A stretch of 64,000 bases of DNA from positions 41,850 through 105,849 of the IMG/VR virus record IMGVR_UViG_3300027796_000011; one strand, 5' to 3'. Shown here one piece after another: positions 4,632 through 62,385 of this stretch. The position numbers and the translations under genes are program-made. The notes under the pieces are model-generated. The model was not told the origin of the DNA. It did not search any database and saw only the letters and a program-made list of their open reading frames with translations. Position 1 is the stretch's first letter, and each line of letters begins with the position of its first letter. The stretch is from a virus. Taxonomy: Duplodnaviria; Heunggongvirae; Uroviricota; Caudoviricetes.

Positions 4632-4671
4632 GTGTGCTATCCTTCCCGCTTTTTGAAGTTAACTTCAGTGC

Positions 4672-5229
4672 TTACTCGACAAAAAAGCGGTGGGAGTGGG
4701 AAAGTTTGGTGGCTGTTGCGGTTGTGGTCAGAATGTCGTGCGTATGCTCGTAGGCTTTCTCACACACGGCCATCCCCACAGTACCGTCAGCATTAAACTC
4801 CACATAGATGGAGTGCTTGTGGACCGGGACTTCATCAGCAGAAACACTATCCTCGGTGTCTCCAAAGAAAATCTTGGCAACTTCGGTGATGACCTTCTTG
4901 GCGACTTTGTTGACACGCATCTGCACAGAGAAGCCGTTCAACTCACCTTTACTAATCATCTCCCAGGTGGGGTTCTCTTCGTCAACACGGACACCAAGCA
5001 CCCAAGCACCTTCGGGGTAGGTAGGATCATCTGATTTGGCAATGAACGATTCGACAACTTCACAACCGTTGATGATATTGTCGTGACCCGTGTCGATATT
5101 GAGAACTTTTCCAGAGGCAATGAAATCGTGAGCCATTTTCTTGATGTCAGCAGCCAGCATGGTTTCCCCATCCGTATCTAGGATGTTGGGGGCGTACACC
5201 ACGCCTTCTACATAATGCTTCTGACCCAT
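4672..5229 (-). CDS. prohead protease-like protein (XkdF/DUF2213-like)
   Basis: 185 aa; GAGGG RBS; positioned immediately upstream of the scaffold gene; weak resemblance only. Confidence 0.3.
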   Translation of the reverse strand: MGQKHYVEGVVYAPNILDTDGETMLAADIKKMAHDFIASGKVLNIDTGHDNIINGCEVVESFIAKSDDPTYPEGAWVLGVRVDEENPTWEMISKGELNGFSVQMRVNKVAKKVITEVAKIFFGDTEDSVSADEVPVHKHSIYVEFNADGTVGMAVCEKAYEHTHDILTTTATATKLSHSHRFFVE

Positions 5230-5404
5230 GATATGCCCTCATATTGACGATTTTTCGTCAAAATTTGAGGCTAATATAGCGATTTCTGGGAATTGTCAAG
5301 CAGAGGTTCTAATTGGCAGGGATACTTGAATATTTTCAATGAGAACTGTTGTTATATTTGACGGTATAGCATTAAATTAACGATATATCATAATTTAGGC
5401 ATAA

Positions 5405-5437
5405 AAAAAGACCCCCAATCTCTTGGGGGTCTTAGTA
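5405..5437 (-). terminator. rho-independent terminator
   Basis: GACCCCCAAGAGATTGGGGGTC hairpin followed by a T7 run on the minus strand, downstream of 5458..5673. Confidence 0.5.
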
Positions 5438-5457
5438 TGTAGTTGTTGTGTCCGGTG

Positions 5458-5673
5458 TTACAGTGACAAGTGTTCTTTTAGCATCCTTCGAGTACATTCG
5501 TCACATATATCGAGGATAATCACCCCGTTCACCCCCGAAATCTCCATAGTGCCCAGATACATGTGCTCAAACTTCTCCATGTCTTCTGATGTGGTGTACG
5601 CCTTCTGACAAGCATCACACTTCATGCTAAGAATCTTCATCATCCCCGTCTCTTCCTGATTATACGTCAGCAT
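5458..5673 (-). CDS. small zinc-ribbon protein
   Basis: 71 aa with CDAC...CDEC pairs. Confidence 0.35.
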   Translation of the reverse strand: MLTYNQEETGMMKILSMKCDACQKAYTTSEDMEKFEHMYLGTMEISGVNGVIILDICDECTRRMLKEHLSL

Positions 5674-5692
5674 GTACTTCCCCCCCCATTTG

Positions 5693-6187
5693 TTAAGATT
5701 TAGTCACTTCGGTCTTCAGAAGAGACACCACGACAGTACGCACCCCGAACTCTCTCATGTCTTTCTTGTTGGACACAAGTATATCAATAGTCTTCTTGTG
5801 TTTCTTGGGCATCAGGTCATTGATAACAAAAAGACCCACACCATGAACTTTGATGATCTTACCTTTAGACCATCCCGCTCTGTGCAGGTCTTGGGAGACG
5901 GCCACCCCACCAAGGAAGGGTTCCGTACCGAACGCAGTTTCGTTAGGGTTACTGTCGCAAGAGGCTTCTGTCGCCATATAGGCAGTAGCCTTGAGGGATA
6001 TCGTCTCAATGTGGGAGGTGTTCTGAAACACCTTGGCTGGCTCTGGGTCTGGCATCTCAATACGGGGGGCCGGATCGTGAATGACGGGTCTTCCAGACGA
6101 CAACTCTTTGGACAGAGTTCCCGCCAGAAGGACGATGGAGATAAACAGCAGAATGTACCAAATAACGCTTGCTTGCTCTTTCGACAT
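5693..6187 (-). CDS. membrane-anchored 3D-domain peptidoglycan hydrolase (lytic transglycosylase-like)
   Basis: N-terminal TM helix VIWYILLFISIVLLAG; C-terminal ATAYMATEASCD...GGVAVSQD...GKIIKVHGVG...DILV matches the 3D domain (YocH/MltA-like). Confidence 0.6.
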   Translation of the reverse strand: MSKEQASVIWYILLFISIVLLAGTLSKELSSGRPVIHDPAPRIEMPDPEPAKVFQNTSHIETISLKATAYMATEASCDSNPNETAFGTEPFLGGVAVSQDLHRAGWSKGKIIKVHGVGLFVINDLMPKKHKKTIDILVSNKKDMREFGVRTVVVSLLKTEVTKS

Positions 6188-6225
6188 ACTCTTCACATTT
6201 CTCTTTTTTGAAGTTAAGTTCAGTT

Positions 6226-6486
6226 TCAATCCACCCGTTTCCGAATCCATCTTAAATCTGTGTTAGCTGGTTTTTGTCGTGAGCGAATCCACAGCACATC
6301 GAAAATGCCAGGACTACCCACTACACAAAAACCAGTGGCTTCTGGATGCGTGTTTGCAGCAACAACTACAGGGCGTCCTAGAAATTTTACCATCCCAAGT
6401 AGTATCGGGTACAACCCTCTATCTGGGAGGGCATCTAAGCCATCCAAAGACATAAGTGTGACTACATCCCCTTTCCTAAGTCTCAT
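6226..6486 (-). CDS. hypothetical protein
   Basis: 86 aa ORF in operon context. Confidence 0.3.
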   Translation of the reverse strand: MRLRKGDVVTLMSLDGLDALPDRGLYPILLGMVKFLGRPVVVAANTHPEATGFCVVGSPGIFDVLWIRSRQKPANTDLRWIRKRVD

Positions 6487-6790
6487 TACAGCCTCCCACC
6501 CGCTTCCGAATCAGTCTTATATCCTTGTGTTCTGCATCCCGCCTTACTATCTCCACACAGTTGGGGGGCAGAATCCTGACATCCCCCGTGTCCATCTGTA
6601 TGATGTAGCCATCTTGGAGTTGGGCCAGCCCAAGAATGTATCCAAACGTAGTCCCCTTCAGAAACGGCTTTATGGGGTCTTCCAGAACGTACTTCGGAAG
6701 GTCTTTTATGCACCTCAGTTCCTTCCGGCTCTTGATGCGGCACCTTCTGTGTACGTTTTTGGTCAGTTCTTCTGTCGAGTATGTAACCAT
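6476..6790 (-). CDS. member of the HRDIRLIR small-protein family
   Basis: C-terminal AEHKDIRLIRKRVGG matches the array consensus at 11.4-15 kb. Confidence 0.45.
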   Translation of the reverse strand: MVTYSTEELTKNVHRRCRIKSRKELRCIKDLPKYVLEDPIKPFLKGTTFGYILGLAQLQDGYIIQMDTGDVRILPPNCVEIVRRDAEHKDIRLIRKRVGGCNET

Positions 6791-6821
6791 GTGCGTACCC
6801 TACACAGTCTTCTCTCTTTTG

Positions 6822-7031
6822 TCAAGAGATATCTCGCATACCTCTCATACAACCGCACGCGATGACCGTCCCGCCCTTCAAGTTGTCCACTCTGATGGTT
6901 TTTAGGTTCCCGCAGTTGAGGCACTTGCATATCCACCAAGTCTTACCGGAGTTATCCTGCGGGGTGGCTCTGGCCTTCACCAACAACTCCCCAAACTGCT
7001 GACCTACGAGGTTTGAAGGTCTTCGTGGCAT
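6822..7031 (-). CDS. small Cys-rich zinc-binding protein
   Basis: WICKCLNCGN...ACGC motif. Confidence 0.35.
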   Translation of the reverse strand: MPRRPSNLVGQQFGELLVKARATPQDNSGKTWWICKCLNCGNLKTIRVDNLKGGTVIACGCMRGMRDIS

Positions 7032-7354
7032 GTAACTTCCTCCTGCTTCACGAACTTGGCACAGCCGTAGTTACCCACGTTATGGAACAGTTCTGAGATG
7101 TAGAGACTTGCACCTTCTGGGTGGTAATACTTCACAAGTGTTCCGTACAGCCCGCACTTCCCGTAGAAGATGCCCTGGACATGGCTCTCTACAAAAGGCT
7201 CCAGCCTGTTCGCACAACTAAAACAATTCTCCTTGTGCATCCTACCCCCACTTTGGCTAGTATTTGTGCATGTCAACAACATCAGGCCCCAGGTAGGGGT
7301 CAAGCAGTTTCCGCCACAGTGTATATCCATTCTTGGTGAGATGCACCCCATCAA
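7004..7354 (-). CDS. hypothetical Cys-rich protein
   Basis: 116 aa ORF. Confidence 0.3.
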   Translation of the reverse strand: MMGCISPRMDIHCGGNCLTPTWGLMLLTCTNTSQSGGRMHKENCFSCANRLEPFVESHVQGIFYGKCGLYGTLVKYYHPEGASLYISELFHNVGNYGCAKFVKQEEVTCHEDLQTS

Positions 7355-7802
7355 CTGTGAAATTCTGACTCAATCTGTTGCTATTGTCAAGAAAAAACAG
7401 ATGAAAATCCAGAAAAAGAACCTTCGGGTCCATCATGTGGTGGCAGAGAAGTCGCAACTCTGTGTTCACCCTATACACATGGGGATTCAATTCATCTCGG
7501 CGGGTGGGCAGGACAGACTGCACATAAATCTGCGTCTCCGGGGAGCCAGCCCGAATTTTTTCAATCAGGGCTTGGTATTTTGCAGTCAACTTCAAATCTT
7601 GAATCTGATTGATACCCACCATGATGAAGATTTTCTTGGGCTTCTGTGTCAGCACCGTATCTACCATCTTGGACATATCAGCGATTGTGCCAGACACCTT
7701 CCCGACGATCACGGAACCGTTAGGAAGCAGCGGGGAGGACTCCCACCCCTTGGTGATAGAGTCCCCCAGAAACACCAGCAGAAACAGATAGACAGCACTC
7801 AT
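7257..7802 (-). CDS. SGNH/GDSL-family hydrolase (esterase)
   Basis: GGGAAGGG RBS before MSAVYLF; FLGDSIT block I with catalytic Ser; DGVHLT block V; signal-peptide-like N-terminus. Confidence 0.6.
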   Translation of the reverse strand: MSAVYLFLLVFLGDSITKGWESSPLLPNGSVIVGKVSGTIADMSKMVDTVLTQKPKKIFIMVGINQIQDLKLTAKYQALIEKIRAGSPETQIYVQSVLPTRRDELNPHVYRVNTELRLLCHHMMDPKVLFLDFHLFFLDNSNRLSQNFTVDGVHLTKNGYTLWRKLLDPYLGPDVVDMHKY

Positions 7803-8059
7803 TAACCCTTCCCCTCGCACGTAAAAGTTATCTGGTCTGGACGCCACAGCCAGTCCGCAGGACGTTTAGACAGGTGGTCCAGCAGTTCCTTGTGGGAGTT
7901 CACCACGATACAGTTATCACAGGAACTCGCCCACGGAGCATTTCCATACCCACACACAGGACACTTCCATCCCACCGGGACGGGCTGCGGAGTCTCACAG
8001 GTGTGTCCAGAACTCTCCACGATCTTGCCACAATACTGACAGTAAGTCTTATGGAACAC
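7802..8059 (-). CDS. zinc-ribbon protein
   Basis: CQYCG...CETP...CPVCG Cys4 pairs. Confidence 0.35.
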   Translation of the reverse strand: MFHKTYCQYCGKIVESSGHTCETPQPVPVGWKCPVCGYGNAPWASSCDNCIVVNSHKELLDHLSKRPADWLWRPDQITFTCEGKG

Positions 8060-8062
8060 GGT

Positions 8063-19869: not shown

Positions 19870-20470
19870 TCTATCTTTTTTTGGCCCGCTCAAAAAATTG
19901 AAATCAATTTCAAAAAATGCCGTATGTAATGATCCGGGCGCGCGAAGAGCATTTTTCATGCCAAAAAATCTTGAAAAAGGCCATTTTTCCTTGTATTGCG
20001 CTAAAAATCTAAAAACGTATCCTTGCCTAGCAAAACATGCCCGGCGCGGCAAATCGCATTCTGGCGTGTTTCAGCCCTATATGCTTCGCATAGCATAACG
20101 AAAAAAACTGGAAAAAAGCTCGATAAAAAGATTTTTTTGGCATGGTTTTTGTCGTGGCATGAAATATGCTTGGCGTTTTTTCCTGCCAGATTTTTTTGCT
20201 TTTTTTTGCTTTTTTTCGCATTTTCTTGTGCTTTTCCTGGTTTTTGGCATGGAACGTGAATTGACAAAACTTTGACTATACTACCACGGCTTTTCTCGCA
20301 TATACTCTCGACATGACAAAAAAATGGCGCAGATTGCTTGCCTTATGCTTTCTTGGGCATATGCTTTCGCGGACATATGCTTGACCACGCCGATATGCTT
20401 TCTTGAACATATGCTAGCTCGGACATATGCTTTTTCTAACCTATGCTTTGTGGAGCATAACGCTGGCGGT
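19870..20470. other. candidate replication origin: AT-rich tract plus iterons
   Basis: poly-T tracts at 20150-20250; six spaced (A)CATATGCT iterons at 20338-20462; an outward-facing promoter TTGACAAAACTTTGACTATACT at 20261. Confidence 0.45.
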
Positions 20471-20572
20471 AGTCTGGTCTGGCGGGGCGGCGGCTAAGTT
20501 CCAGGTGGGGCAGCCTGCTTACCTGTTAGGTATTCTGTCTTAAATCCTTCCCCAAAAAATGCTACGTTGCAA

Positions 20573-21621: not shown

Positions 21622-21851
21622 GCATCCCCGAAGTCACCCACCCCCCGCACAATCCGGGTACTCTCCCCCCGACGTTCCATGTCTTTGAACACCTTGAAGG
21701 CGTCAAACCCCATTATACAGTCGCTCTTCAAGTCCCTGGCCTCAATATCTAAGGTAGTCCACTTCAAGGTGTAGATATTCGTCCCCGGAGTTGCCATGTA
21801 CGTGTATGTGTAGAGCATACCCCCCCTTTGTTTTTTTGAAGTTGATTTCAA
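21591..21851 (-). CDS. small acidic protein, paralog family member 3
   Basis: GFDAFKVFKDMERRG. Confidence 0.35.
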   Translation of the reverse strand: MKSTSKKQRGGMLYTYTYMATPGTNIYTLKWTTLDIEARDLKSDCIMGFDAFKVFKDMERRGESTRIVRGVGDFGDAWEDTYEISA

Positions 21852-24063: not shown

Positions 24064-24142
24064 GTTCCTACCCCCCTCATTTGTTAGAAACAGTATAGAC
24101 CAAGAATCCCAGAAATGTCAAGTAGTTTTTTCGCAGTCAAAT

Positions 24143-24607
24143 TCAATTATTGACCCGGATCATGCGGTATTGCGGGTTGGTAGTCGTCTCCGTTCCAAAT
24201 TCCAGATACAGATGACGCTTACCCTTGCGATAGATGACCAAGTACACCGAATCCGAATACAGACCAAGTTCCTTGTGCTTGGCGGTCATCTTGGCCCCGC
24301 TGTACCATTCCACCCGCACCTCGTCCCCCTCCCGCAAAAGGGACAGGATAGACTCCGCATGATATGCCGTGCTGTACAAAGCCGTGTAATAACATCCGCT
24401 CAAGTCCTTTGCCCTGGCCGAATAGTTTGAAAAATACGCCTTTGTCTCAAAAGCGTAGGTGTACTCCCCGTTCTCCCGCACGATGTGAAACTCCCACTTG
24501 CAAGTACCCGCCCCTGGCTCAGACCGTAAAACCAGGGACTTGCTCAGATACTTTTCAGCCTTGAGGACGTACTTGATAGCCTTGATGTCTTCCTTGGTAA
24601 GTTCCAT
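24143..24607 (-). CDS. hypothetical protein
   Basis: 154 aa ORF with leader. Confidence 0.4.
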   Translation of the reverse strand: MELTKEDIKAIKYVLKAEKYLSKSLVLRSEPGAGTCKWEFHIVRENGEYTYAFETKAYFSNYSARAKDLSGCYYTALYSTAYHAESILSLLREGDEVRVEWYSGAKMTAKHKELGLYSDSVYLVIYRKGKRHLYLEFGTETTTNPQYRMIRVNN

Positions 24608-24955
24608 AGTGTTTCCCTCCCGATTTTTTAATAAAGGGCATCCAAAGGAAGAACGATCTCATTTCCTACGCAACGCTCATTTTCTGCCGCTTCCTTGGAT
24701 GGAAAAACCCGGATTCGATTCAATACTCTTGTATAAGAGTTTTTGCTTCCAGGCTTGGCAACGTATCCACCTTCGCCACCTGTCCTTTTCAAAATGAATC
24801 CATTTGATTGCATGTGTGTTTCCCTCCCCGATTTGTTGAGTAGAGTATGCGCTAAAAACCTGGAAATGTCAAGAGGTTTTTTGAAGTTAATGGCGAAAAA
24901 AAAGCGGGAAGGCTTGCACCTTCCCGCACTAACTATTCAGGATTCTTTGAGATGT

Positions 24956-27615: not shown

Positions 27616-27703
27616 TTCGTTACCCTCCCGCTTGATTTGTTGAAGTCAGTATGTGCTATTTTCCAGGTTTTGTCAAGCACTTTTCCCATTGACTTCACTA
27701 TTT

Positions 27704-28071: not shown

Positions 28072-28092
28072 AGCGGTTTTTCACATTGACTT

Positions 28093-28128
28093 CAAAAAAA
28101 CGGGGGGCTTTTACACCCCCCGCACATG
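28093..28128 (-). terminator. rho-independent terminator
   Basis: GCGGGGGGTGTAAAAGCCCCCCG hairpin + T7 on the minus strand. Confidence 0.5.
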
Positions 28129-28784: not shown

Positions 28785-29087
28785 GTGTGTTCCCTCCCGA
28801 TTTGTTGAAGTCAGTATGTTCTTTTTCTGGGAAAATGTCAAGCACTATTTTGAAGTTAGTGTGAGAATTTCTGTCAGGGTCGCATGGATGGAGAACAGAC
28901 GTTCTTCCAAGCCCTCCCGCTCCGGGGCGGGGAGGCAACCCACTACCGCCCGGATATCCGCCAAATGACTTCTCATCTGGCAAGCGGATGACATGAGGGC
29001 CGAAAGCGTCTGAGCGTCCATGTCATTTTCCCGCCTCAATTCCTTTCAGAATGAGCCACCCTACGCATATTGCCCATAACACGAGGA

Positions 29088-30525: not shown

Positions 30526-30601
30526 CGCTCCTCCCGCTCAATTTGTTGAGTAGATTATGGACGTTTTTCCAGGTTTTGTCAAGAGGTTTTTCCCATTGAC
30601 T

Positions 30602-30817
30602 TCAAAAAATAATGTCAGGGTGTAAACGGTAGACCTGTTTCCCAAGAAACACCCGCACATCCTGCGGGCTGGCCTTGCCCAAGAATTGCGCCAGCTTTTG
30701 CCGGGATGCCTTCCCGCCCGGCCTGACTTGAAAGTACCGCTGCGGGAGGGTCTTAGCCTCACCCCGGATGGTTAATTCCTCGTCCGTTTCCATATTGATG
30801 AAATTGATATTGGTCAT
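30602..30817 (-). CDS. hypothetical protein
   Basis: 72 aa starting MTNINFINME. Confidence 0.3.
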   Translation of the reverse strand: MTNINFINMETDEELTIRGEAKTLPQRYFQVRPGGKASRQKLAQFLGKASPQDVRVFLGKQVYRLHPDIIF

Positions 30818-31442
30818 TTTAGTCGTCCCCTCCAAGCAAGTCTAGACGCTCTTCAAGCGTGCGAATATAGCACGCCAAGTCTTCCCTGTCCATTTCAAGT
30901 TCTTCTATCCGGGCTTCCAGCTTGGCTATTTCGGAGTCTTTGAGGTCAAGCTCTACAGCAACGTCTTCCCAAAGCACCCACTCCCCATGCTTGTCAGCCT
31001 TCATCGTGTATCTGTCCATATGCCCCCCGATTTGTTGAGTAGAGTATGTGCTTTTTCTGGGAAAATGTCAAGCACTATTTTTCCAGTAATTTACCGCGCA
31101 ATCCTCCAAGTTCGCTAGGTACTCACTGTGCCTGTCGGCTGCGGCGTCACTCCAACCATCCCGCCATGCCACACGGTCCACGCTATCAATAGTATAAGGG
31201 CTAGCAGACTCTTCCCGTCCCTCCAGAAAGGCACTGTACCCCAGGTCGTATGCTTCCATGTGGTCCCTCCCGCTCATTTGTTAGGTGCATCCTACCCGAA
31301 AAATCTAGGGTTTGTCAAGAGGTTTTTTGAAGTCAATGGGAAAAAGCGGGGCGGGTGGGAAAACAGCCGAAGCCCCCAAAGCATCCTATAAGACACTATG
31401 AGGGCTTCTGGCTCAACTACCCGGCTATCTACCCGGCTTACT

Positions 31443-32662: not shown

Positions 32663-32768
32663 ACTACACGCCTCCATTACCGAGGGGGTTATCCCAGAGG
32701 AACTCTCTAGAACATACCCCCCTATCAAGAGTTGAAGTTGATTTCAAAAATCTGGGTGAATACCCCCC

Positions 32769-34260: not shown

Positions 34261-34927
34261 CTGGAATCCTCCCCGCTCGATTTGTTACAAACATCTTACC
34301 CAATTTTTCTAGGCATTGTCAAGAGGAATTTCGCAGTCAACTTCAAAATTTTCGGGGTCGGTTAACTCTTCCCGCAGAAGTTCTCTCACTTTAGTCCTTT
34401 CTGCCTGATGGTACATCTGCCGATCCTTCCCGCTCTTGGGGCCGCAACACCGGCACTTCCATCTGTACCAACTCATGGCGTCCAGCCCCAAACGCTTATC
34501 AACCTTATCCGTCTTCGCAGACGACTGCATACTGCCCCCCCCTAGTTAGTCAGGAAGAGGGAGGCAAACTCCTCCCAGAACTCATCCTCTTCCAGTTCGT
34601 ACCTACGTTGCTTCTTGCCGTTCCCATGTACCTTCGTCAGATACCTGGAGTCCTTGGGCATTGCATCCCGCCGTGCTTCTCTGTAAGCCCTGCGGGTTGC
34701 CTCCCCCACATCAATCTTCTGGCACTTCATATCGCTCCCCCTCCAACTCGTTACGGTATCTCTCAATACACCCATCTAGAGTGGTATCCCCATGCTTCTT
34801 CCAATACTCATACAAAAGCAAGTTCAACTCTTTTGACATCTTCTCAACTGCGTCAGGAAAAGTTGCACGGCTTCGGATACGCATTACAAGCCTCAAACAC
34901 TTATGCAAAAACAAGTCAACATCTGGA

Positions 34928-38821: not shown

Positions 38822-39940
38822 TTTGATTTCCCTCCCGCTCGATTTGTTAGAAACAGTATGTGCTTTTTCTGGGAAAATGTCAAGCACTTTTTCACATTGA
38901 CTTCACAAATTTGGGTCTACCGACTTGGCTATGCAATAATCCCTAGCAGTTCCGTAAGGATCGTCCTTCCAGGTAGCAGCCATCAGGTTGTAAAGCCTCT
39001 CAACCACTACGAAAACTGCGGGGTGGTCTTCGACTGCGAACGCACCATCATGAGGCCCAAGTTTGAAACACAGTTCCTCTAACATGATAGCCAGAGAAGA
39101 GATGTCATCCTCGCTACTCGCATCCACAACGTCTTGGTAATCTCTTTGATCTAGCATGTAGCCCCTCCCGCCCACTCAACCTTCCCTATGGAAAGGGAAG
39201 GTTCCAGTTGGATGTGCAACATGAAATGCCCGGAACACGCAGCGCACTGCAAAGTTTTCACTACGTTGAGATCGTCCGGGTCCAAAACTACAAGCCTCTC
39301 ACCCTCTGCGGACTCTTCATTAGCAGCATCTACCAACGTAGTAGCACCACAGTTCGGGCATTTCACATTGAATTTCACTGCGTAGCCTTCCCGCTCTCGC
39401 GCTCCATCTTCAGAAGCTCAGGCATGAACGGAGTCTTGTACCAGTATACATCCCCCCGCTCATCTGTGAGCATCGTGGGCACATACTTGTCTTCTCCGTC
39501 CTTGGCAGAAAATTCATCCAGAAGGTTCAGTACAAACAACTCCAGAATCCCTTCAGCGAGTGCTTTGAGTACGTTCAGAATGGGCATGAACTGCCGGGGA
39601 GACTTCGGCAGTTTAGCCATTGCCAGAAGGACACCCCCATACCCAATCAACGCGCTGTGCATCTCAAAGAACTGCTGTTCGTGCTTGTGCGCTTTACGCA
39701 GTTTCGTACACATGTCAGGAAAGATTCCCATCGTAGCCATGAACTCCTCAAATCGGGAGGGCACACTACTAGAGTCCTCAAAAGAAACACCAAGCATCTT
39801 AAACCCTTCCAACATGGTAGACACCAAATCCTCATTGCTCAAAACAACTTTAGAACCAATCATCGTCCCCTCCGTCTCGGTTGTCCATACAGTGTATCAA
39901 GGTTGCTAACACCAGCACGAAACACAGAACTAGTCCCATA

Positions 39941-41201: not shown

Positions 41202-41829
41202 GCAACACGCTCCTTGTGCTGTTTTTTCAGAATCCAACTTTTATAGCAGAAAGCAACAAAAATGCAAGCCCTTTTCATTTCCTACTGGATACGTTCGCTT
41301 CTGCTAACCTCTTGGAAAACTGTTTCAAATTGGCATCTGTGAGTTCAAAAAAATCTTTTACGCCCTTTCCGTATGACGCGCACACCCCGAATCTGAAAGC
41401 CTCCACCTCTTCAGGTGTTTCAAACTCGTAGGTGTCAATGTGAACTTTAACCTTTTTCAGTTTCTTTGCATCCGTACAATTTACATCAAAATACGTGAGG
41501 ATTGAATCTTCATCAAACAACATGTGGATTTTGTGCATAAATTCCCGCCCAATCTACATAAGGTTTTCTCTTTCGGCCAGCCACCTCGGGATGACCAGCG
41601 TCACATCATCCCCCCGTTCAAGTGTTCCAATGGGCCACCCCCGATCCGTGCCCATGTCCGTAAAAAACCATTCCTTAATGTACCTCCGTGGGAAGAATAT
41701 TTCGCGTTCCGACATATCATCAAACAGACACACGGCTAAGTCTGTGATGGTCAAGACCGTCCCAAATCGCTCTATTGGTTCATTCCTCTCTTCGTGGGTC
41801 ATGTGCCCCTTCCCTCTTTGAAGTTAAGT

Positions 41830-44800
41830 TCAAAAAATCTGGGGTCGGCCTGTTCTGATCCTACGAACTTCTGTCCGTACCTCTTTCGTCTTCAACTGCT
41901 TCCCGCTGTTCACGGCCACTATCACATACGTTCCACCCGCCACGGCGTCTCCTACGTCCTTCCCACCCCCCTGTGGGTGGTCTGCCTTCTGCTTCTTCGG
42001 GTCGTACTTCAACTCTCGCAGTTCCTTCGTTAGTACAGGGTGGTCGGGAAGGATCAACCTGTCGTCACGTAGTCCCTGCTTCACTTCCATCCAGGGAGCC
42101 AAGTTCTTGTCCACAGAGACAATGGAACTCTTGATCTGAAACCCCCGATAATTCCTAAGTCTCCGCATACGTTGAAGCAGTGTGGCACTTTGAAACGTAT
42201 CCGATGTCACATAAATCAACGGAATCCAAGCGGCAATCAATTCAATCAAATCCCCGATCCTGTTAATGTCAATCTCATCGGACATGGGAGGAACGATCTG
42301 CAAGGCTCCATCAACAACAACCAGGGGCTTCTGCCCCGGAGTGGCCTCACGCACCTTCCCGGTTTTCTCATCGTAGTCGTAACTCTTCCCTACGTCCTTC
42401 CAGCCCCCCAAGTGCGTGACTGCCAATCCGGCACAGTCATTTGTCAAAGCCAAGTCCACATGAATCGCGTATTCATTCAAGGAATCAAGATAATCAGAAA
42501 TGTAGGTTTTGTCAAGTAGAAATTCAAGATTTTCAAAAGAATTTAAGTCTACCGAATCATGGGCGAACAGTTGCTTCCCGCTATATGCCTTGTGGTGGGC
42601 TTTAGTGGACCTGACAATAGATTCCCTGTCCTTGATGAACAGATTCACGCCACCCACCGGCACACCGGCTATATCACGGATAGCAGCATCTATATCACTC
42701 TGGAAATCGGGAAGGAAGTCCACAGGTACTTCAAGTACATCCTGAAGTTCTATCGCTTCCTCTTTGGATTGAATGATTCTGGAACGCCTTGTGTCATCCC
42801 CAACTTCAACCAGGAAGGTTTCATCAGAGAAAGTGCCTACCGGCTTGGCTTCCCACTGCGACAACGAGGAAAAGTAAATCGGGCAGGGAACACCCTTCGC
42901 CTTATAGTCATCAACCTCTGCTTTCTTGGTAGACACAAAGTCACCAGGATAGTGGGCCGAAGACATGATACACAACTTACCAGGAACCTTCCCGCGACGA
43001 TTGAAACGCGATTTGATACGTCTAGTGATGGTGCTGTAAAGTTTCTGTGCTTGGTTGTATTCTGCCTCCCCGGTGAACTTGGCCCTGGATGAGTTCTCAA
43101 TGTTCGCCATGAAGTTCACTTCGTCGAGACAATTATGTGCTATAAAAACACCGCTTCGTGCCTTTGCAAAAAACGCATGTGTATTAGGAACATTCTTCAG
43201 GTCATACACGGCACACTTTCTAAAAATAGGTTCAATCCCCATACACAAGACGGGTTGAAACCCTCTGCGAGTGCTTGGAACGTCACTTCTCTGACCTTCT
43301 CTCGAATAAGTTTTCGATACAACGCCCCCAAACCCATCTGCTGAAGAATTGCTTGCGTAACTAACCTGATGTTCTCTGTCTGACGTGCCGCAGTCATCTT
43401 TGTTAAAGTCTTTTCGTCTCGCAACCACAGGTTCCCCTTCACCTCGATAAGACCGAAAGATGTCTCGAAATCTGGTATATATATTTTCTTCTTCCCTTGA
43501 TATAGGTAAGGAAGCCTCTTGGACTCGTATTTGTATGGAATCACCAAGAAATCCAACCAAAAAGCAAACACCAACTCTAGTTTGGAAGCTAGTACCAATA
43601 AGGTGCCATCCGGGCGAAAATACCTCACCATCTTGCCACTGAACCCCGTCGCCAGAACAGCCTCCCTGCCCCGCATACAATGATATTCCATATTTGCTTT
43701 CTGCAATACGGACAACTTTAAGTACCGTTCCTTCGCGGCTAAAGACTTCGCGGCAGCATACTCCTGGTTCTGGTATAACTCTCGTAGTTTTGCAGGTCCG
43801 AGGTGCCGAACCTTCGCTATACCTCCGCGCAGGGCCTCTATAAACGCAGGGGCTTTTCTCTGCTCGTAAACATGCTCCCGTGCTTTTTCCGAACAAACCT
43901 CTGCAATGTCTTGCGCCTTCATTGTCGCTTTTGGAAATAGCTCCCGATACTTCGTAGGAGTCATGTTGTGTTTTTTCAAATGTGTCCCGGTTATCATACG
44001 CATCTCCGCACCGCACACTAGACACGGAACCAACTCCCCAGGAGATTTCCTTTTTCTCTGTGTCTCCATCATCTTCGGAGTACACAGTATCTCCCCTGGA
44101 AACATCTCCCGATACACCCTTCCAGTCATCGAATGTACGTTTTTCAAATGCTGTGTTAGATATGTAACCCGCGCTCCGCATATCTTGCATGTCAACAAAC
44201 TTAAAACACCTTCCTGGCATGTTTGAGGCTGCAATCCACTCACCGGAATCCTCCATAAACTTTTGGTCTTTAGTGCATATAATATGCTCTCCATTATCAA
44301 ACGAGACTTTATACAACTCCTTGTATCCAGTCAGTACGGACTCAACAGGACAATCAGTAGCCCTAATGACGGAACCCTCTACATCATAGGTTAAAACCGG
44401 AGAGCACCCCCCCGCATCCATGCGCACAAACGTACCATCGGAGGCAAGGTATTCTTGTTCTGGAGGAAAACAAGCAGTGAACACGTTCAAGCCCAAAGCG
44501 GACGTATCACCAGAAGCCACAGGCATGATGGTGACATCGCTCGGGAAACGGAGTTCCGTTGTAATGCTTTTGTCATACGGGAAATACTTCTGGAAGTACT
44601 CCCCCCGCCGTAGCATCTGGGAGAACTGATCGAACAGAACCTTTCTAGCAAGCGTCAGGCTCATGGATTGGAAAATCATGAAGATACTTGAGCCAGAAGA
44701 CAACCCGTACTCAAGTTGCGGGGTGTGGTAGCAAGACAGTTTATATAGCTGATACGCAAGAATTAACTGTGCGCGGAAGCTCTTACCAGAACCGATTGAG

Positions 44801-46079: not shown

Positions 46080-46175
46080 TCTTGCTCCATAAGAGTTCCC
46101 TCCCCCTCACGCCGTATTGACGCTTGGGGGAGGGTTTCGGGAGGGGAAGGATTTTTGCAGACAACTTCAAAAAAT

Positions 46176-50634: not shown

Positions 50635-50783
50635 GTTAGTTCCCTCCCGATCAATTTGTTGTTGGGGAGATATTACCACTTTTTCTGGGTTTGTCAACAA
50701 AAAAGTTGAGGGCAGGACTTCTCCCACCCCCAACTCGTTAGAACTACTTAAAATGTTTTTGAAATTGACTTCAGAAATTCTAG

Positions 50784-51452: not shown

Positions 51453-51475
51453 TTGCTTCCTCCCCGAATTTGAAG

Positions 51476-52057
51476 TTAATTTCGGAAATTCCAAGACTGT
51501 TGCATTTCCGTCAGGAACCTTCCGTTATATGCCTTGAATTTCTCACGAAACTTGCTGCGCTTGGCATCGAGTTCTTCTGCCGGGGCCAGGGTGTGCCTCC
51601 CCAAAAGTGCCAAGGTAAAGCCGTCAGCTTCATCCCCATTGGCTACCGGCATCCCCCAAAAGTCTCGTATGGCAACCCTAACCTCTTTCTTGTCTGCTGA
51701 TGCCTTCCCGGTTGCAAATCCCTTGAGTATATTCGGCTCTGCCAACAGGAACGGGAGGCCAGTAATTTTCGGGATGGAGTGCTTTAAGTAGCCCATCATC
51801 TCCAGTCTATCAGCAGCATTACCTAACACTCCATACAATGCTGCTCTTGAGATGTCTTCAAAGACTACTACATCTCCTGGTTGAATAATGTTGAGTACCC
51901 CTTCCACCCCGATTTTTTGACGTTCCCACGACGTTTTATCTGGTTTGGTCGGGAGGGATAACGACGCAGTTTCATTCCTACCAAGGTCTATGATACCAAC
52001 CCCCGGCCTTGCCAACGAGATATCCAACCCAATGAACCTCATAGCATCAGCCTTCAT
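51476..52057 (-). CDS. RuvC-like Holliday junction resolvase
   Basis: FIGLDISLARPGVGII (RNase H-fold motif I), VVFEDISRAAL, GDEADGFTLALLG. Confidence 0.5.
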   Translation of the reverse strand: MKADAMRFIGLDISLARPGVGIIDLGRNETASLSLPTKPDKTSWERQKIGVEGVLNIIQPGDVVVFEDISRAALYGVLGNAADRLEMMGYLKHSIPKITGLPFLLAEPNILKGFATGKASADKKEVRVAIRDFWGMPVANGDEADGFTLALLGRHTLAPAEELDAKRSKFREKFKAYNGRFLTEMQQSWNFRN

Positions 52058-54221: not shown

Positions 54222-55139
54222 CTACGCCTGTATGGGAGTGGGTCTGGTTGACTGCACATCCATAAGGTACACCTTGTGTGCATATGTCCCATCATCGTAG
54301 ATATCAAAAACGACACATCCTGTATCTACAACGCCAGAGCATTGAGAGGCACCGTATATGGTGGACGGACCTTGCAGAGAGGGGAGGACCACACCGCGCC
54401 AACCTCTAGAAGCAGATTCATCGTAGTAGTGGACATGGCTACGAAGCATGATGTCTGCTTTGGGGGAGTAGTTGCGTTCATTCCACAAGATGTTCCAGAC
54501 ACGTTCTTTCTTGATGGCGGTTGCCCTCCCCCACGGGACAGAGGAACCACCTATCTTGTGCTTCACATCGAAGACCACCCCGTTCACATCCACCCACTCG
54601 TGACTTCCCACCCGCCCCTTGACGGCTTCGGCTACCAACTGCTCATAGTTGGTGAAGTCCTTCCCATTCACATGGTATGGGGTGCCCCTGGTGAACACGT
54701 TGGTTCTAGCGTCAATGAACTTGGCAATGTGAATCGCCATATCCGCCTGTTCTTTGAGGTCTGTGGTGGTCTGCTCCACCCCGCCAGACTTGTCACCCTT
54801 CCCGTCAATCAGATCACCGTTGCCGATCAGGACATCAATGGGTTGGATTTTTGAAATCAACTGCGAAAACCAATCCCACATTTCCACCTGAAGGTCAGCA
54901 TACATACGCTTCTTCTGGTCCGCTTCCTCATGCGGGGTGGATTGCCAAGGAGGCGGGGTTAGCCCCGCACGATGCCCACAATGCCAATCACCGGTAGCCA
55001 GTACCCGTTTGAAGGTTCCACGCTTATGACGGGCAAACAACCCCTGGAACGTAGACCACGGCATGTCCGTATGCCTCCATGCTTCCCGAACCTGACCACC
55101 AAACTCCTGCACCAAGTCAAAGACCTCTTTAGGCGTCAT
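54222..55139 (-). CDS. calcineurin-like metallophosphoesterase
   Basis: LATGDWHCGH, IGNGDLIDGKG, HVHYYD motifs. Confidence 0.55.
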   Translation of the reverse strand: MTPKEVFDLVQEFGGQVREAWRHTDMPWSTFQGLFARHKRGTFKRVLATGDWHCGHRAGLTPPPWQSTPHEEADQKKRMYADLQVEMWDWFSQLISKIQPIDVLIGNGDLIDGKGDKSGGVEQTTTDLKEQADMAIHIAKFIDARTNVFTRGTPYHVNGKDFTNYEQLVAEAVKGRVGSHEWVDVNGVVFDVKHKIGGSSVPWGRATAIKKERVWNILWNERNYSPKADIMLRSHVHYYDESASRGWRGVVLPSLQGPSTIYGASQCSGVVDTGCVVFDIYDDGTYAHKVYLMDVQSTRPTPIQA

Positions 55140-59221: not shown

Positions 59222-59327
59222 CCCGCCTCCGGGTAGATTTGTATTTTTGAAGTTGATTGCAGAAAAGTTTGGGAAGCCCCAACATCCATGTCAAGGCTTC
59301 CCTATTGCGGGGAGGGTGGGTAGCTAA

Positions 59328-59771
59328 CTAGGTGGTGGAAAACTTAAACCGGACACTAGGGCCAAGCATCCCGCGCAACCGCGAGATAAGCCCATGCTCA
59401 AACTCAGACACCGTAGACTTCCGAAGGGCTTCATACTGCTCCTTGGCACGCTGCTTCAGGCACCAATCACAGTTACACTCTGGGCCGTCATCGTCCTCTG
59501 CGTCTGCGTATCCCTCATCCACATCTTCCTCAAGAGACAGGTCTTCAGGGATATCATCCACCCCGGAATCGTGCTCGTAGAACTCAAAACCGTCAGTAAC
59601 GGTCTTGCCGTTTTCCTGCACAACCAGGAAATCGACAGAGCCAGAGCCGTCACGCTTCATGGTCAGCGTGAACTCTTCCAGTTCACCCTCACACATGTCA
59701 TCAAAAAAACACAGGGTGTTGTCGCAAAACTCCATCACTTCATCACGCTCTTCTTCACAAAACTGTTGCAC
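59328..59771 (-). CDS. highly acidic Cys-containing protein
   Basis: 147 aa, D/E-rich. Confidence 0.35.
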   Translation of the reverse strand: MQQFCEEERDEVMEFCDNTLCFFDDMCEGELEEFTLTMKRDGSGSVDFLVVQENGKTVTDGFEFYEHDSGVDDIPEDLSLEEDVDEGYADAEDDDGPECNCDWCLKQRAKEQYEALRKSTVSEFEHGLISRLRGMLGPSVRFKFSTT

Positions 59772-59797
59772 GTTGACCTCCCCGCTGTGGCGGGCTG

Positions 59798-60703
59798 TTA
59801 GAATGTCTGAGCAGCAGCTAGCTGCTCTTTATACCACTCTGGAAATCCTCTGGTAGCCACACGCAGTACATCCCTACCAAATATCTCCCAGAGTTTGTCC
59901 TTGATGTTGTCCTTCTCCTCTTCTGTGATGTCCGAAGTGATCTCCTTCAGAAGAGGGCCGATGTCCTGCGGAGTCTCTGTGAGCCTCCCATCTTCCCGCA
60001 AATGGTTTATAGCCTTATGCCAGCGGGCAGGAGTGCAGTACCCCTCAGACATAACTTCAAACTTACCCTTACCAGTGTTCTCTTTCTTCCAATTTGCGCC
60101 ATTCACCTCTTTGAACTTCTCAGACACAAATTTTCCACAAGTAACGGGGTACTCCTTGTCTTGGAAGTAATGCGTTTGAGCGTAGTTCTTAACAACAAAC
60201 CCCTCAATCATGCTACCACCAAGAAAGGACATCCTATTCAGCCACACAGAGAAATCCTCGCTGACGGAACAAGTCCCCGTGTAGATGAGGGGAGCTACGT
60301 CAATGCCTAACCGAGAAGCAATATCCTTCTTCTCCCCCCTGGTAACAAAGTTTTCCATTTTCAGATCATACACATCCCACAAGACCAGATTCCCTTTGGG
60401 GGTGTGATCGTAGGCCAACGTGTTGTGTTTCGGACGGCACAATGCCTCTGTGTAATAAATGTACCTGGATTCCAAAAGGCTCTCAACACTCAAAACATGT
60501 GCAATCGAAGGCTGAAATAACTTGTCAGCAGTACCCGCAAAAACTTCAGCACGCTTGCTACGGAAGTAGACCTCTGTGCTTGGCTTTGCGAACACAAAGC
60601 AAGAGCCGTCCACCTTCTCTTCCACGAAGACCTTTCCGTGAAACAACTTCCCAAGTCGCTTGTCTCCAATGGCGGCTATCTTTTGGAATCCAGGCAATTT
60701 CAT
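59798..60703 (-). CDS. ATP-dependent polynucleotide ligase (Rnl2-like RNA ligase or minimal DNA ligase)
   Basis: motif I EEKVDGSCF (KxDG), motif IV SMIEGFVVK, motif V CGKFVSEKFKE. Confidence 0.55.
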   Translation of the reverse strand: MKLPGFQKIAAIGDKRLGKLFHGKVFVEEKVDGSCFVFAKPSTEVYFRSKRAEVFAGTADKLFQPSIAHVLSVESLLESRYIYYTEALCRPKHNTLAYDHTPKGNLVLWDVYDLKMENFVTRGEKKDIASRLGIDVAPLIYTGTCSVSEDFSVWLNRMSFLGGSMIEGFVVKNYAQTHYFQDKEYPVTCGKFVSEKFKEVNGANWKKENTGKGKFEVMSEGYCTPARWHKAINHLREDGRLTETPQDIGPLLKEITSDITEEEKDNIKDKLWEIFGRDVLRVATRGFPEWYKEQLAAAQTF

Positions 60704-61100
60704 GCTACGCCCCCTTGGTAGCCGTAACAGACTTCCGCATGGTGGAACGGAAACTATCCTCCATGTTCCGCATGGAGAGGGTCCGAAGACAGATAGCCTG
60801 ATCCTTTGTCATCCCGCCCTCAACCTCAAACCGCTTGATGGCGTGCAACGTCTCATCCACACTGCAATCCGTGACATACCGAAGAGCCGCCCGAAAAATG
60901 GGGTCAACATCAGAAGCCAAAGTCTTGAGTGTTTGCACAAACGCCTTGAACTCCGGGTCATCCTTCAGAAACGGCAGCAGCCGCGCAAACTGAGCCAGTT
61001 CACTAATATCCAAGGTACTCCCTCCCAATTTTTTGAAGTTAATTTCAGGACTCCTGCCCCAACCGTCGAACGAGTATAATAAGTCGTTTCTCTAGGTTTG

Positions 61101-61994
61101 TCAAGAAGTTTTTTCAAAGTTTTTTTGACATTGCTCTTTCATAGGACAATTCCTACCCCGATACGTTGCGAAGGCTCCGTCCCGACACTCTGGGAGAGGG
61201 TCTGGAACATAGGTAGGGTCCACCACCCCGCGATTGAAGGACTCCAATGTGTCTTGGAGATACCCTACAACGTCAGGGTCTTTACGCACAGGGAACACCT
61301 TGACCGGGATACCCTTCTGGTGCCTCTTGCTGATGTAGGCAACAAAGCCCTTGTCAGGGTTGAACTGCACCGGAATCTGGGTATCTGCTTGCATCAGCAT
61401 CATGTAAGCATTGACCTGTATCGTGTGGTCCCCCTTCGGGGCGGTCATAGCCTCAAAGTCCTTCCCCGAACAGGTCTTGAAGTCCAAAATGCGAAGATCA
61501 CCTGGAGCCACTTCCACGAACCCGTCAATATGCCCCGTGACCCTGTAAGGGGTTTCCATCTTTAGGCTGTATTCAGAGTAGTTGATACACCTTACTGAGG
61601 AACCACAGCCAGAACACTCTTGAGAGGGACGCCGCCCGAAATACATAAAGCCGCAGTTAAGGCACTGCCACCAACCCAGGAAGTTCGTGGACAAATAGTC
61701 ACCAGAGTCTTGCAAGTACCTGTGAACAGCGTTACCAATGTCAAAGGTCATCTGCAATCCAGCCGGGGTGGCCCTCCCCCACATAACACCAGAGCGTAGT
61801 CCAAGAATCTTCTCACGAACACATACGTCATGCAGGGACGAACAACGTAAGAAGGACGAATACGGGAACTGCTCCCGCTTCGTAGTCATGTTGAACAGCG
61901 CGTGCGCCAAAAGTTGCGGGTCGGCTATGCCGTCCACTTCCGCACTCTTAACTGGTGCTGTCACATCTGAAGAGTAAGTCCTGATAAATCTCAT
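61101..61994 (-). CDS. Cas4/RecB-like PD-(D/E)xK nuclease with C-terminal Cys cluster
   Basis: GHIDGFVEV...LRILDFKTCS (D...D/ExK); C-terminal CRDGAFATYRGRNCPMKEQC Fe-S-like cluster; central Cys4 CLNCG...CSGCG. Confidence 0.5.
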   Translation of the reverse strand: MRFIRTYSSDVTAPVKSAEVDGIADPQLLAHALFNMTTKREQFPYSSFLRCSSLHDVCVREKILGLRSGVMWGRATPAGLQMTFDIGNAVHRYLQDSGDYLSTNFLGWWQCLNCGFMYFGRRPSQECSGCGSSVRCINYSEYSLKMETPYRVTGHIDGFVEVAPGDLRILDFKTCSGKDFEAMTAPKGDHTIQVNAYMMLMQADTQIPVQFNPDKGFVAYISKRHQKGIPVKVFPVRKDPDVVGYLQDTLESFNRGVVDPTYVPDPLPECRDGAFATYRGRNCPMKEQCQKNFEKTS

Positions 61995-62385
61995 CTTAAA
62001 AACCCCATACGTTGGCGTCTAAGAGCCACAATCTTTTCAAGCAGCGAGTCTAGCGTTTCAGTAGGCATATGCCATACGGTCTTACCCGTGGGCTTCACAT
62101 CCTGACCCCATCCCGCCATGTAATCCTGCCGCTTCATGCCAAGTTGCTCAATAACTTCCTGCACTACAGAATCTCTAGGTTCCTTCCACCCCAACCCATC
62201 TGTCAGGTAAATGAAGCCTTCGGCACAGTCACGTTGGAACCAAGCCCCCTCAACAATATCCCCAATAACCTCTGAGGCTGTGATGTCGTCATCCATCTGT
62301 TGAGTCCTCCCCAATTTTTTGAACTCAATTTCAGAGCGTATTATACACAATTTTCCAGATTTTGTCAAGAGAAATTATCGTGCTC

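Follow-up and report, generated by a model that had tools for sequence, protein, structure and literature searches.

What function is served by a short AT-rich palindrome that recurs along the genome of a tailed phage? The question is raised by a 64-kb stretch of DNA from an uncultured phage (Caudoviricetes; positions 41,850 to 105,849 of the IMG/VR virus record IMGVR_UViG_3300027796_000011), hereafter called the window, which belongs to a whole phage genome of about 106 kb. A preliminary description of the window had noticed the palindrome in intergenic regions and offered three possible roles: a transcription-factor operator, an RNA hairpin, or an unusual AU-rich terminator. This interpretation is partly supported by the present analysis, which comes out for the operator and against both the hairpin and the terminator. 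With a confidence only a little above even, we favour the view that the copies form an operator array for a dimeric DNA-binding protein that would act by promoter modulation and as a roadblock.

The repeat is real and occurs far above chance. The 16-mer core TTGAAGTYRACTTCAA is found 16, 27, and 40 times in the window at up to 2, 3, and 4 mismatches, respectively, against means of 0.06, 1.06, and 9.2 in 50 Markov shuffles, and the 12-mer GAAGTTAACTTC is present in 9 copies at up to one mismatch, against 0.06 expected. As judged from its copies, the site has the double-stranded consensus TTT-YTGAAGT-YR-ACTTCAR-AAA, a palindrome of 16–22 bp whose 22-bp duplex form is TTTTTGAAGTTAACTTCAAAAA; its half-sites are 8 bp each, contiguous, and fixed in spacing. 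A copy is present at all 19 positions that had been given as examples, and additional copies are located at 342, 2051, 4585, 7580, 10054, 15812, 19898, 24131, 27683, 28850, and 54851. The earlier count of more than 20 perfect or near-perfect copies stands for the near-perfect ones but not for the perfect ones: the full 22-mer has no exact occurrence in the window, its best copies carry 1–3 mismatches, and a perfect 12-mer core exists only once (4655).

The copies were listed against the gene boundaries, using 129 genes (the gene calls of the sequence collection plus a few of our own; 89.7% coding). A uniform distribution, which had been named as the outcome that would speak against a role for the repeat, was not what we saw; the sites are instead strongly concentrated in non-coding DNA, which makes up roughly 12% of the window. 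Sixteen of the 27 sites with up to 3 mismatches are not wholly within a called coding sequence, whereas 87.7% of all 16-mers are (binomial p = 1e-8). The palindrome is therefore intergenic by preference but not exclusively, because some 6–8 copies lie truly within genes, including those at 2051 and 7580, which have up to 2 mismatches, a level at which 0.06 copies are expected in the whole window. On the minus strand, 2051..2066 (2 mismatches) is in an HNH endonuclease gene, 7580..7595 (1 mismatch) is in a GDSL lipase gene, 54851..54866 (3 mismatches) is in a coding region, and 4585..4600 (2 mismatches) is in coding DNA, 46 nt into the gene of a 349-aa protein and 68 bp from the copy at 4653.

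Eleven palindromes, designated class A, are located at promoters. The window contains about 31 near-identical sigma-70-type promoters (for example, at 28072, 30582, 31318, and 38883 on the minus strand and at 12085 and 15335 on the plus strand), each a cassette with the order ctcTTGACA, a spacer with aaaCCWGGAAAAA, CATACT or TAGGAT, the leader CAACAAATcgaGCGGGAGG, and ATG. The conservation of the cassette reaches far outside both hexamers and includes the CCWGG-containing spacer box. The palindrome accompanies 12 of these roughly 31 TTGACA promoters, and about 20 are without it. Its core ends 7–9 bp before the −35 hexamer, with its centre at about −51.5 and a span of about −60 to −43, and not some 15–30 bp upstream of the −35 hexamer as first described; distances of 18–19 bp are seen at the divergent pair with −35 hexamers at 9938 and 9992. 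Here, a lone palindrome (9957..9972) is placed between two divergent TTGACA-N16-TATATT promoters, 18 bp from the −35 at 9938 (−) and 19 bp from that at 9992 (+). Its centre, at about −61.5, is one helical turn farther out (26–27 bp from centre to −35 versus 16 bp elsewhere). From ctcTTGACA onwards, no difference exists between the promoters at 24872 and 15335, yet one has a palindrome and the other does not, so the palindrome is a separable add-on and not a part of the promoter.

The single class A copy listed on the plus strand, 12061..12076, is 8 bp before the −35 at 12085. On the minus strand, the copies are 24131..24146 (9 bp before the −35 at 24121), 24881..24896 (left half degenerate; 8 bp before the −35 at 24872 and straight after a G+C-rich terminator), 27683..27698 (GTGAAGTCAATGGGAA; 6 bp before the −35 at 27676 of the ardA promoter), 28080..28095 (TTGAAGTCAATGTGAA; behind a terminator and 7 bp before the −35 at 28072), 28850..28865 (inverted relative to the 28080 copy at an otherwise identical promoter, −35 at 28841), 30590..30605 (TTGAAGTCAATGGGAA; 7 bp before the −35 at 30582), 31327..31342 (TTCCCATTGACTTCAA; 8 bp before the −35 at 31318), 34331..34346 (8 bp before the −35 at 34322), and 38891..38906 (7 bp before the −35 at 38883). 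The TGA of the motif doubles as the stop codon of the upstream gene at three class A copies, among them 24131 and 38891, and at several sites the T-run upstream is the tail of a distinct G+C-rich terminator. Most class A copies combine one good half with one degenerate half (TGTGAA, TGGGAA, or CTGCGA), and the good half may be on either side, nearer to the promoter in about 4 copies and farther from it in about 6. Two pairs are inverse to each other, 30590 exactly to 31327 and 28080 nearly to 28850, and the promoters beside the members of each pair are almost identical.

Two further observations concern these promoters. A sub-class with the form TTGACA-N16-TATATTAGG has its −35 hexamers at 9938 (−), 9992 (+), 47160 (−), and near 5300 (−; N15 in this case); it precedes the structural, terminase, and phoH operons and is unlike the N17 CATACT type of the early region. 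The palindrome-bearing promoter with its −35 at 31318 is directly followed by a gene (31068–31277, −) for a homologue of ribosome modulation factor (Pfam RMF, E = 8e-8; phmmer against Escherichia coli RMF, E = 2.8e-7), for which no further relative was found in the indexed protein collection.

About 15 copies, designated class B, are located within transcription units, either in their first 5–45 nt or in the space that separates a stop codon from the ribosome-binding site that follows. In 12 of the 15, the core ends 15–32 nt before a start codon, which bears out the early remark that some copies stand directly before a ribosome-binding site inside operons; the distance from core to Shine-Dalgarno sequence is 3–19 nt. 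Three settings can be distinguished. In one, the palindrome comes directly past the upstream stop, and at two copies the TGA of the motif is that stop: 21836..21851 (−), 17 nt from the next ATG, and 41818..41833 (−), where the stop is that of the terminase gene and the next ATG is 15 nt away across a 27-nt gap. In another, the copy is in a 5′ leader behind a promoter, as at 10054..10069 (+; phoH leader, about 30 nt past the −10 and 27 nt from the ATG) and 61033..61048 (−; 25 nt past the −10 of the promoter at 61104 and 19 nt from the start). In the remaining setting, it abuts a −10 hexamer. The copy at 62319..62334 (−) begins 5 nt past the −10 (TATAAT) of a consensus promoter whose −35 is at 62368, spans the point where transcription is expected to start, and is 22 nt from the ATG, and that at 59247..59262 (−) is 2 nt past a weak −10 (TTGACA-N18-AAACTT) and 25 nt from the ribonucleotide reductase ATG.

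Other class B copies on the minus strand are 342..357 (right half degenerate; 6 nt past the upstream stop and about 20 nt from the ATG), 4653..4668 (CTGAAGTTAACTTCAA), 6208..6223 (CTGAACTTAACTTCAA; 20 nt from the ATG), and 51470..51485 (in a 23-nt gene junction, 17 nt from a GTG start), and 15812..15827, on the plus strand, is 31 nt from the ATG of a DUF7736 gene. The copy at 4653 takes up the 40-nt interval that separates the protease gene from the gene of the 349-aa structural protein, with 3 nt left after the stop and 21 nt before the ATG. Junctions between genes on the same strand ordinarily have a median gap of 3 nt, whereas those with a palindrome measure 23–190 nt, and the tightest of them are wholly filled by it. 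Because the palindrome fills small, enlarged gaps, its nearness to the ribosome-binding site is largely a matter of geometry. Also on the minus strand are a compensated variant at 19898..19913 (TTGAAATTGATTTCAA; 32 nt from a start codon), an intergenic copy with one mismatch at 32732..32747 (21 nt past a stop codon), another intergenic copy at 46155..46170 (5 nt past a stop and 75 nt from the next start), and a copy past a stop codon at 50759..50774, which is followed by a terminator (50736–50703) and a promoter with its −35 at 50697.

Whether the symmetry belongs to RNA or to DNA can be judged from the way in which the two halves vary. In the 15 class B copies, the halves have equal information content, and the weakest positions, 6 and 11, are mirror partners at which A stands opposite C in 7–9 of the 15. 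When 44 copies, taken from the window and from related loci, are aligned, 66.4% of the cells are paired, compared with 69.1 ± 1.3% when partners are shuffled; 497 of 500 shuffles pair at least as well as the observed set, and the covariation score is 0.077 against 0.110 in the shuffles. The two half-sites are conserved equally and do not co-vary, so they appear to be held independently to one consensus. Symmetric conservation without compensation is therefore the signature of a symmetric DNA-binding protein and not of base pairing. Folding of the copies revealed no stable hairpin, either as RNA or as DNA: the sense-strand minimum free energies (MFEs) range from 0 to −4.6 kcal/mol, and most of the z-scores lie within +0.6 to −2, no better than shuffles, and no Rfam family matches at the sites. 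Folding of the transcripts and counting of pairs thus give the proposed hairpin role no support, and we rejected a structured RNA hairpin given the absence of compensatory change, pairing below the shuffles, and MFEs similar to theirs.

An intrinsic terminator or an mRNA-processing hairpin might be suspected from the T- and A-runs that flank the palindrome and from the several copies right past stop codons. On either strand, however, the palindrome has its T-run in front and its A-run behind, so that the T-run is on the wrong side for a terminator. A terminator scan never called the palindrome itself but called separate G+C-rich hairpins adjoining it, and the idea of an unusual AU-rich terminator fails in the same way, with an A-run following the palindrome and with any upstream T-run being the tail of such a separate G+C-rich terminator. 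With no stable G+C-rich stem-loop, no 3′ U-run, no covariation, no Rfam family, and folding energies no better than those of shuffles, the intrinsic terminator was rejected, and the terminator or processing reading as a whole is extremely improbable. An extragenic palindrome like repetitive extragenic palindromes (REPs) or miniature inverted-repeat transposable elements (MITEs), which are stable imperfect hairpins with an associated transposase and hundreds of copies per host, was likewise tried and rejected, with no stable hairpin and no transposase in the window.

The role as a transcription-factor operator is favoured by the symmetric halves, the use of either orientation, the overlap with −10/+1 regions, the intragenic copies, and the clustering of the palindrome in an unrelated element (described below). 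Several positions are operator-like: the copies at 62319 and 59247 are just past a −10, that at 9957 is between divergent promoters, and one in the unrelated element (contig L048, position 8295) lies over a probable −10/+1. The intragenic copies at 2051, 7580, and 4585 are not explained by an element acting on translation. In the mechanism that we propose, one symmetric, dimeric, sequence-specific protein would read all copies as a genome-wide operator array. A dimer bound at a class A site, about −60 to −43, would occupy the docking zone of the alpha C-terminal domain of RNA polymerase (the distal UP subsite) and could modulate, most simply damp, about one-third of the very strong early-type promoters of the phage. 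Within transcription units, the bound dimer may act as a roadblock or occlude the start site. A single factor could thereby co-ordinate many operons, much as immunity repressors do at stoperators and KorB does at OB sites.

Several observations weigh against this operator array. Class B has a strand bias, with the form CTGAA...TTCAA occurring 9 times and its mirror form 0 times, and at positions 6 and 11 the A/C combination occurs 7 times versus 1, which a perfectly symmetric reader does not predict. The right half of class B together with its A-run also resembles a conserved early mRNA leader (GACTTCAACAAATCGGGAGG aligns with AACTTCAAAAAATTGGGAGG). Close pairs of sites (about 67 bp apart), as might serve cooperative binding, are not above chance (4 observed versus 3.1 expected). 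The fixed spacing of 7–9 bp to the −35 could reflect duplication of the promoter cassette and not function. Finally, no helix-turn-helix (HTH) or ribbon-helix-helix (RHH) regulator was recognized by Pfam and PHROG scans among the 127 window proteins, and the search for a regulator extended over all but about 28 kb of the roughly 106-kb genome. In our reading, the class B bias is superimposed by the surroundings that ribosome-binding sites have in general, and possibly by an avoidance of mRNA structure: an A-rich AACAAAT/AAAAAATCGGGAGG context precedes the Shine-Dalgarno sequence genome-wide, whether the palindrome is present or absent, a separate conserved context, AACAAATCGGGAGG, surrounds ribosome-binding sites, and in the related integrative element the strand bias either runs the other way or disappears.

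The search for the binder gave weak leads only. The preliminary description had advised looking for a phage-encoded HTH protein, and none is recognizable among the 127 window proteins; the leads in the window are a sigma-like protein, an FmdB-type zinc ribbon (53746–53925), and one unlocated small protein that matches a PHROG "DNA binding protein". Further candidates are a 52-aa early protein of HTH-like appearance (within 23212–23370) and, outside the phage, the CopG-type RHH protein of the integrative element (L048:8305–8502). The sigma-factor-like protein (55750–56406, −) matches Sigma70_r4 with E = 9e-5, below the Pfam threshold, and PHROG 1740, "RNA polymerase sigma factor", with E = 1.2e-6; its best match in the PDB is region 4 of FliA, and no cognate promoters were found for it. 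It has no detectable homology to the sigma region 4 protein of the integrative element (contig L006, position 2418). The RHH protein of that element has no homologue in the available phage sequence, and as far as sequence is available the phage has no regulator gene in common with the elements that carry the palindrome. A host origin of the factor is therefore as likely as a phage origin. The sites of CodY, ArgR, MetR, TrpR, CRP/FNR, and IHF each fail on spacing or half-site sequence.

The main rival to the operator array is a role in translation at the RNA level, in which the transcribed ...AACUUCAAAAA, just 5′ of the Shine-Dalgarno sequence, would enhance initiation, offer the ribosome a standby site, or bind a protein or rRNA, in a way comparable to the start-associated sequences of Cluster K mycobacteriophages (described below) or the epsilon sequence of T7 gene 10. 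The ends of 12 of the 15 class B copies at 15–32 nt before the start, in one shared orientation, agree with it, as do the generality of A-rich AACAAAT/AAAAAATCGGGAGG contexts in the genome and the fact that the early promoters have a conserved leader with which the right half and A-run can be aligned; the UUAACUUCA of the motif is one base off the epsilon sequence, UUAACUUUA. This role is nevertheless unlikely. The left half is conserved equally with the right, and 11 copies precede promoters; several of these come right behind strong terminators and are hence untranscribed with the gene downstream. Copies are inverted at promoters and occur within genes, their separation from the Shine-Dalgarno sequence is variable (3–19 nt), the general A-rich context accounts for the A-run without the palindrome, and the proximity to the ribosome-binding site is forced by geometry, given that ordinary junctions have a median gap of 3 nt and that the palindrome fills the few enlarged ones. 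Only slightly less credence is due to a recombination or mobility element, that is, a short linker at module boundaries that spreads by copying, shuffles cassettes, and is perhaps the target of a nuclease or recombinase, comparable to the promoter early stem-loop (PeSL) cassettes of T4-type phages and to recombination at the repeats of Cluster O mycobacteriophages. Imperfect variants do recur (TTGAAGTCAATGTGAA at 28080, at 38891, and before a ribosome-binding site at position 15667 of contig L001; TTGAAGTCAATGGGAA at 30590 and 27683, inverted at 31327), the palindrome is exactly at the upstream edge of duplicated promoter cassettes, it is common to an element that shares one 89–92% identical gene with the phage, and Cluster O repeats flank insertions and deletions (PMC4351075). 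Yet no breakpoint of homology between phage and element was seen at a palindrome, no REP-associated tyrosine transposase (RAYT) was found, and the half-site consensus is kept over about 30 copies, which indicates sequence-specific selection and not mere homology. Such a role would also be compatible with that of an operator.

Two explanations that start from the transcription machinery fare less well still. The palindrome might be a phage-specific promoter, read by the host RNA polymerase with the sigma-like protein (55750–56406) at middle or late genes with very short leaders. In its favour, a sigma-factor-like protein is encoded in the window, class B copies stand, with a single orientation and at 15–32 nt from the start, before genes for structural proteins and DNA metabolism, and the left half, TGAAAT/TGAAGT, resembles the −35 boxes of the extracytoplasmic function (ECF) or sigma-28 type. 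We hold it to be quite improbable, and a sigma-factor promoter class was rejected, because no second conserved box at fixed spacing exists on either side and the symmetric element is used in both orientations; in addition, copies lie before the −35 of other promoters and within genes, the structural, late, and terminase operons own TTGACA-N16-TATATT promoters, and intergenic k-mer enrichment yields no further promoter-like motif. The UP element of strong bacterial promoters extends from −60 to −40, with an A-tract beside the −35. A reading of the palindrome as such an A/T-rich dock for the alpha C-terminal domain, strengthening early promoters, fits the class A span of about −60 to −43 and the A-run at −45 to −40, which matches the proximal UP subsite; GAAGTTAACTTCAAAAA agrees with 11 of the 14 specified positions of the UP consensus in an alignment of our own. 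It is a shade less probable even than a phage-specific promoter, however, since the palindrome is optional at promoters that are otherwise identical (12 of about 31 carry it), the A-run is present without the palindrome, an UP element would not be expected to conserve the G and C positions that are conserved here, and no promoter lies downstream of about 15 copies, which is more than half of them.

Among known systems, the closest precedent is the 17-bp dyad repeat of Cluster O mycobacteriophages, TGTTCGGNNNCCGAACA, with 34 copies: 14 intergenic, 10 near the 5′ ends of genes, and 10 intragenic (PMC4351075). A few of these copies, but not most, are near SigA-type promoters, and the authors inferred dimeric regulators, the function being unknown (PMC4351075). 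In both cases, tens of copies of one short dyad-symmetric sequence occur phage-wide above chance, without a meaningful overall orientation, in short intergenic gaps, near gene starts, and within genes; class B adds a partial strand bias here. The half-sites of Cluster O are invariant, whereas those of the present phage are degenerate, often with one good half only. One-third of the copies here are fixed before a −35, and the repeat is shared with a second, unrelated mobile element. The consensus and the host are unrelated to those of Cluster O, and the window has no near match in INPHARED.

The stoperators of Cluster A phages (L5, Bxb1) are asymmetric 13–14-bp sites, strictly oriented, which are bound by the monomeric immunity repressor of these temperate phages (PMC9283540, PMC6550527). 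Their many dispersed copies in short intergenic gaps of operons, together with an operator at the early promoter, find a counterpart here, and the blockade of elongating RNA polymerase is the mechanism that we propose for class B. The present site differs from them in that it is symmetric and 16–22 bp long, occurs in both orientations in class A, and has only a mild strand bias in class B; no repressor gene was found among the window proteins, and the phage looks virulent, with neither repressor nor integrase seen in its sequence. In Cluster K, the 13-bp start-associated sequence (SAS) is asymmetric and overlaps the ribosome-binding site 3–8 bp before the start codon, and the extended SAS (ESAS), tied to the SAS, consists of 17-bp imperfect inverted repeats with a variable spacer of 4–13 bp in essentially one orientation, its function being unknown (PMC3203893). 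A translation-initiation context with upstream imperfect inverted repeats at a subset of genes, and no support for a hairpin, is common to both systems. Compared with the SAS, the palindrome ends farther upstream (15–32 nt before the start and 3–19 nt before the Shine-Dalgarno sequence); compared with the ESAS, its 8-bp half-sites are contiguous and fixed, and copies are also found before promoters, inverted, and within genes. For the OB sites of KorB (plasmid RK2), the C1 operators of phage P1, and the inverted repeats of phiC31, one regulator serves 12–20 palindromic or 17-bp sites, some of which adjoin a −35 and others of which are far from promoters. The site sequences are unrelated to ours, and no gene similar to those of ParB/KorB, C1, or the phiC31 repressor was detected in the window. 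The palindrome is thus a dispersed symmetric repeat of an already-described type, in a new phage and with an unrelated sequence.

The motif is also enriched outside the phage, in IMG/VR and JGI contigs of the same project (L048, which equals L126, and L005, L006, L024, L063, and L076). These contigs have only the tail tube gene in common with the phage (70–92% amino-acid identity), apart from two short, weak matches of L024; in distant relatives found via the tube gene (L007, L008, L010–L012, and L050–L052), the motif is not present. Three of the contigs, L048 (IMG/VR 3300004154_000250, span 1–9729), L005 (3300027800_000079), and L006 (3300027800_000175), represent an integrative element from the same habitat as the phage, which encodes an integrase, a CopG-type RHH protein, an AAA_25 primase-helicase, a portal, an SU10/GP7-type capsid, and a sigma region 4 protein, and has a tube gene 89–92% identical to that of the phage. 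The element, which may be a satellite or a small temperate phage, has 6 palindromes in 9.7 kb. In its divergent control region, three of them are about 42 bp before tandem TTGACA promoters that face the primase gene; the copy at L048:8295 extends over what is probably the −10/+1 region of the operon for the RHH protein and the integrase, and the others are in gene junctions. The same two contexts, promoter and junction, therefore recur in an unrelated replicon.

The end of the element consists of the 3′ 59 nt of tRNA-Ser(GCU). The longest tested stretch of this fragment (32 nt) matches 2 of 185,579 GTDB species genomes, both of them metagenome-assembled genomes (MAGs) of Thermodesulfobacteriota, which tentatively suggests a Thermodesulfobacteriota-like host. 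The palindrome is not in the loci fetched from the two MAGs, and the primase of the element has no match in GTDB genomes. We regard it as a rather doubtful, if attractive, idea that the palindrome is a cis-regulatory code shared by the phage and the tRNA-Ser element of one host and coupled by a single trans-acting factor. This factor could be the RHH repressor of the element, a phage protein, or a host regulator. The coupling might take the form of cross-activation, as between a helper phage and its satellite; alternatively, the roughly 30 operator copies on the replicating phage might titrate the repressor of the element and so induce it.

In scans of sequence collections with the 18-mer, most matches were due to chance or to unrelated uses. 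The identical 16-mer is the presumed operator in the BCAM1947/1948 intergenic region of Burkholderia cenocepacia (PMC4525489). On JAABU* contigs (L062, L067, L090, L096, L100, L103, and L104, and again L107, L112, L113, L118, L122, L123, and L130), the 18-mer is at the centre of a 44-bp near-perfect or perfect palindrome, CACATTCCACTTGTTTGAAGTTAACTTCAAACAAGTGGAATGTG; this palindrome is part of a longer repeat that recurs over numerous contigs of an organism whose G+C content is about 60%, and it makes up a repeat family of no relation to the present one. Upstream of an AAA ATPase gene on a contig with 40% G+C (L064, 5110–5210; L153, 90–190), (T)TGAAGTTAACTTCAA occurs three times in tandem at intervals of about 39 bp, in what looks like a classical operator array using the same palindrome. 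By analogy, the occurrence of the same 16-mer in unrelated DNA would show only that the sequence suits dimeric binders.

Genes of the window are also found on the JGI contigs Ga0066602_10000070 (75 kb) and Ga0066602_10000549 (30 kb), on Logan contigs of SRR10466930, and on a 106,007-bp contig. No close relative of the phage was found in INPHARED, and none of its terminase in IMG/VR. The genes are on the minus strand at 1–9870 and 16300–64000 and on the plus strand at 9900–16200, and encode a tail tube protein, a protease, a terminase split by an insertion, a class II ribonucleotide reductase, RtcB, an RNA ligase, PhoH, ThyX, a C5-methylase, ArdA, and numerous small early proteins. The large subunit of the terminase (41830–45180, −; 1116 aa) is matched by other phage terminases in two pieces that make up 51–59% of its length, which suggests an intein or a large insertion. 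Seven small paralogous proteins (86–110 aa; genes at 6226, 6476, 11394, 12148, 13227, 13864, and 14199) have a conserved, basic C-terminal tail, ..H(R/K)DIRLIR(L/K)R, in common. At 26041–26137 (−), between two TTGACA promoters, there is a 97-nt tRNA match (Rfam RF00005, 48.6 bits) that was not called by ARAGORN. A 600-nt non-coding gap (20268–20867) contains 16-nt tandem repeats, TATGCTTTCTTGGGCA, at 20328–20448 and copies of a 23-nt repeat, CTACGTTGCnnGTTGCCGGTCCC, which appears again at 31487–31554 and 34603; this gap could be a replication origin or another set of binding sites.

Palindromic hexamers are otherwise avoided in the window. At least 12 have zero occurrences, including GTCGAC, GGATCC, CTCGAG, TTTAAA, and AGATCT, and GTYRAC is depleted (38 observed versus 60 ± 8 expected), a pattern that looks like avoidance of restriction sites. 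A link of the palindrome itself with the HincII/GTYRAC restriction site was considered and failed, with 9 of the 38 GTYRAC sites within palindromes.

If the copies do form an operator array, one protein would control or sense about 30 points in a 106-kb genome, including one-third of its strongest promoters and many gene junctions. The phage would then be a natural case of genome-wide control by roadblock and occlusion outside the actinobacteriophages, the group from which arrays of this kind were originally reported and in which the understanding of them is still partial. As a ready bait, the 22-bp site can be used to look for the regulator among phage, element, and host proteins. As a site shared with the integrative element, it may also provide a handle on the cross-talk between co-resident mobile elements and a sequence tag that links uncultured phages to one host.

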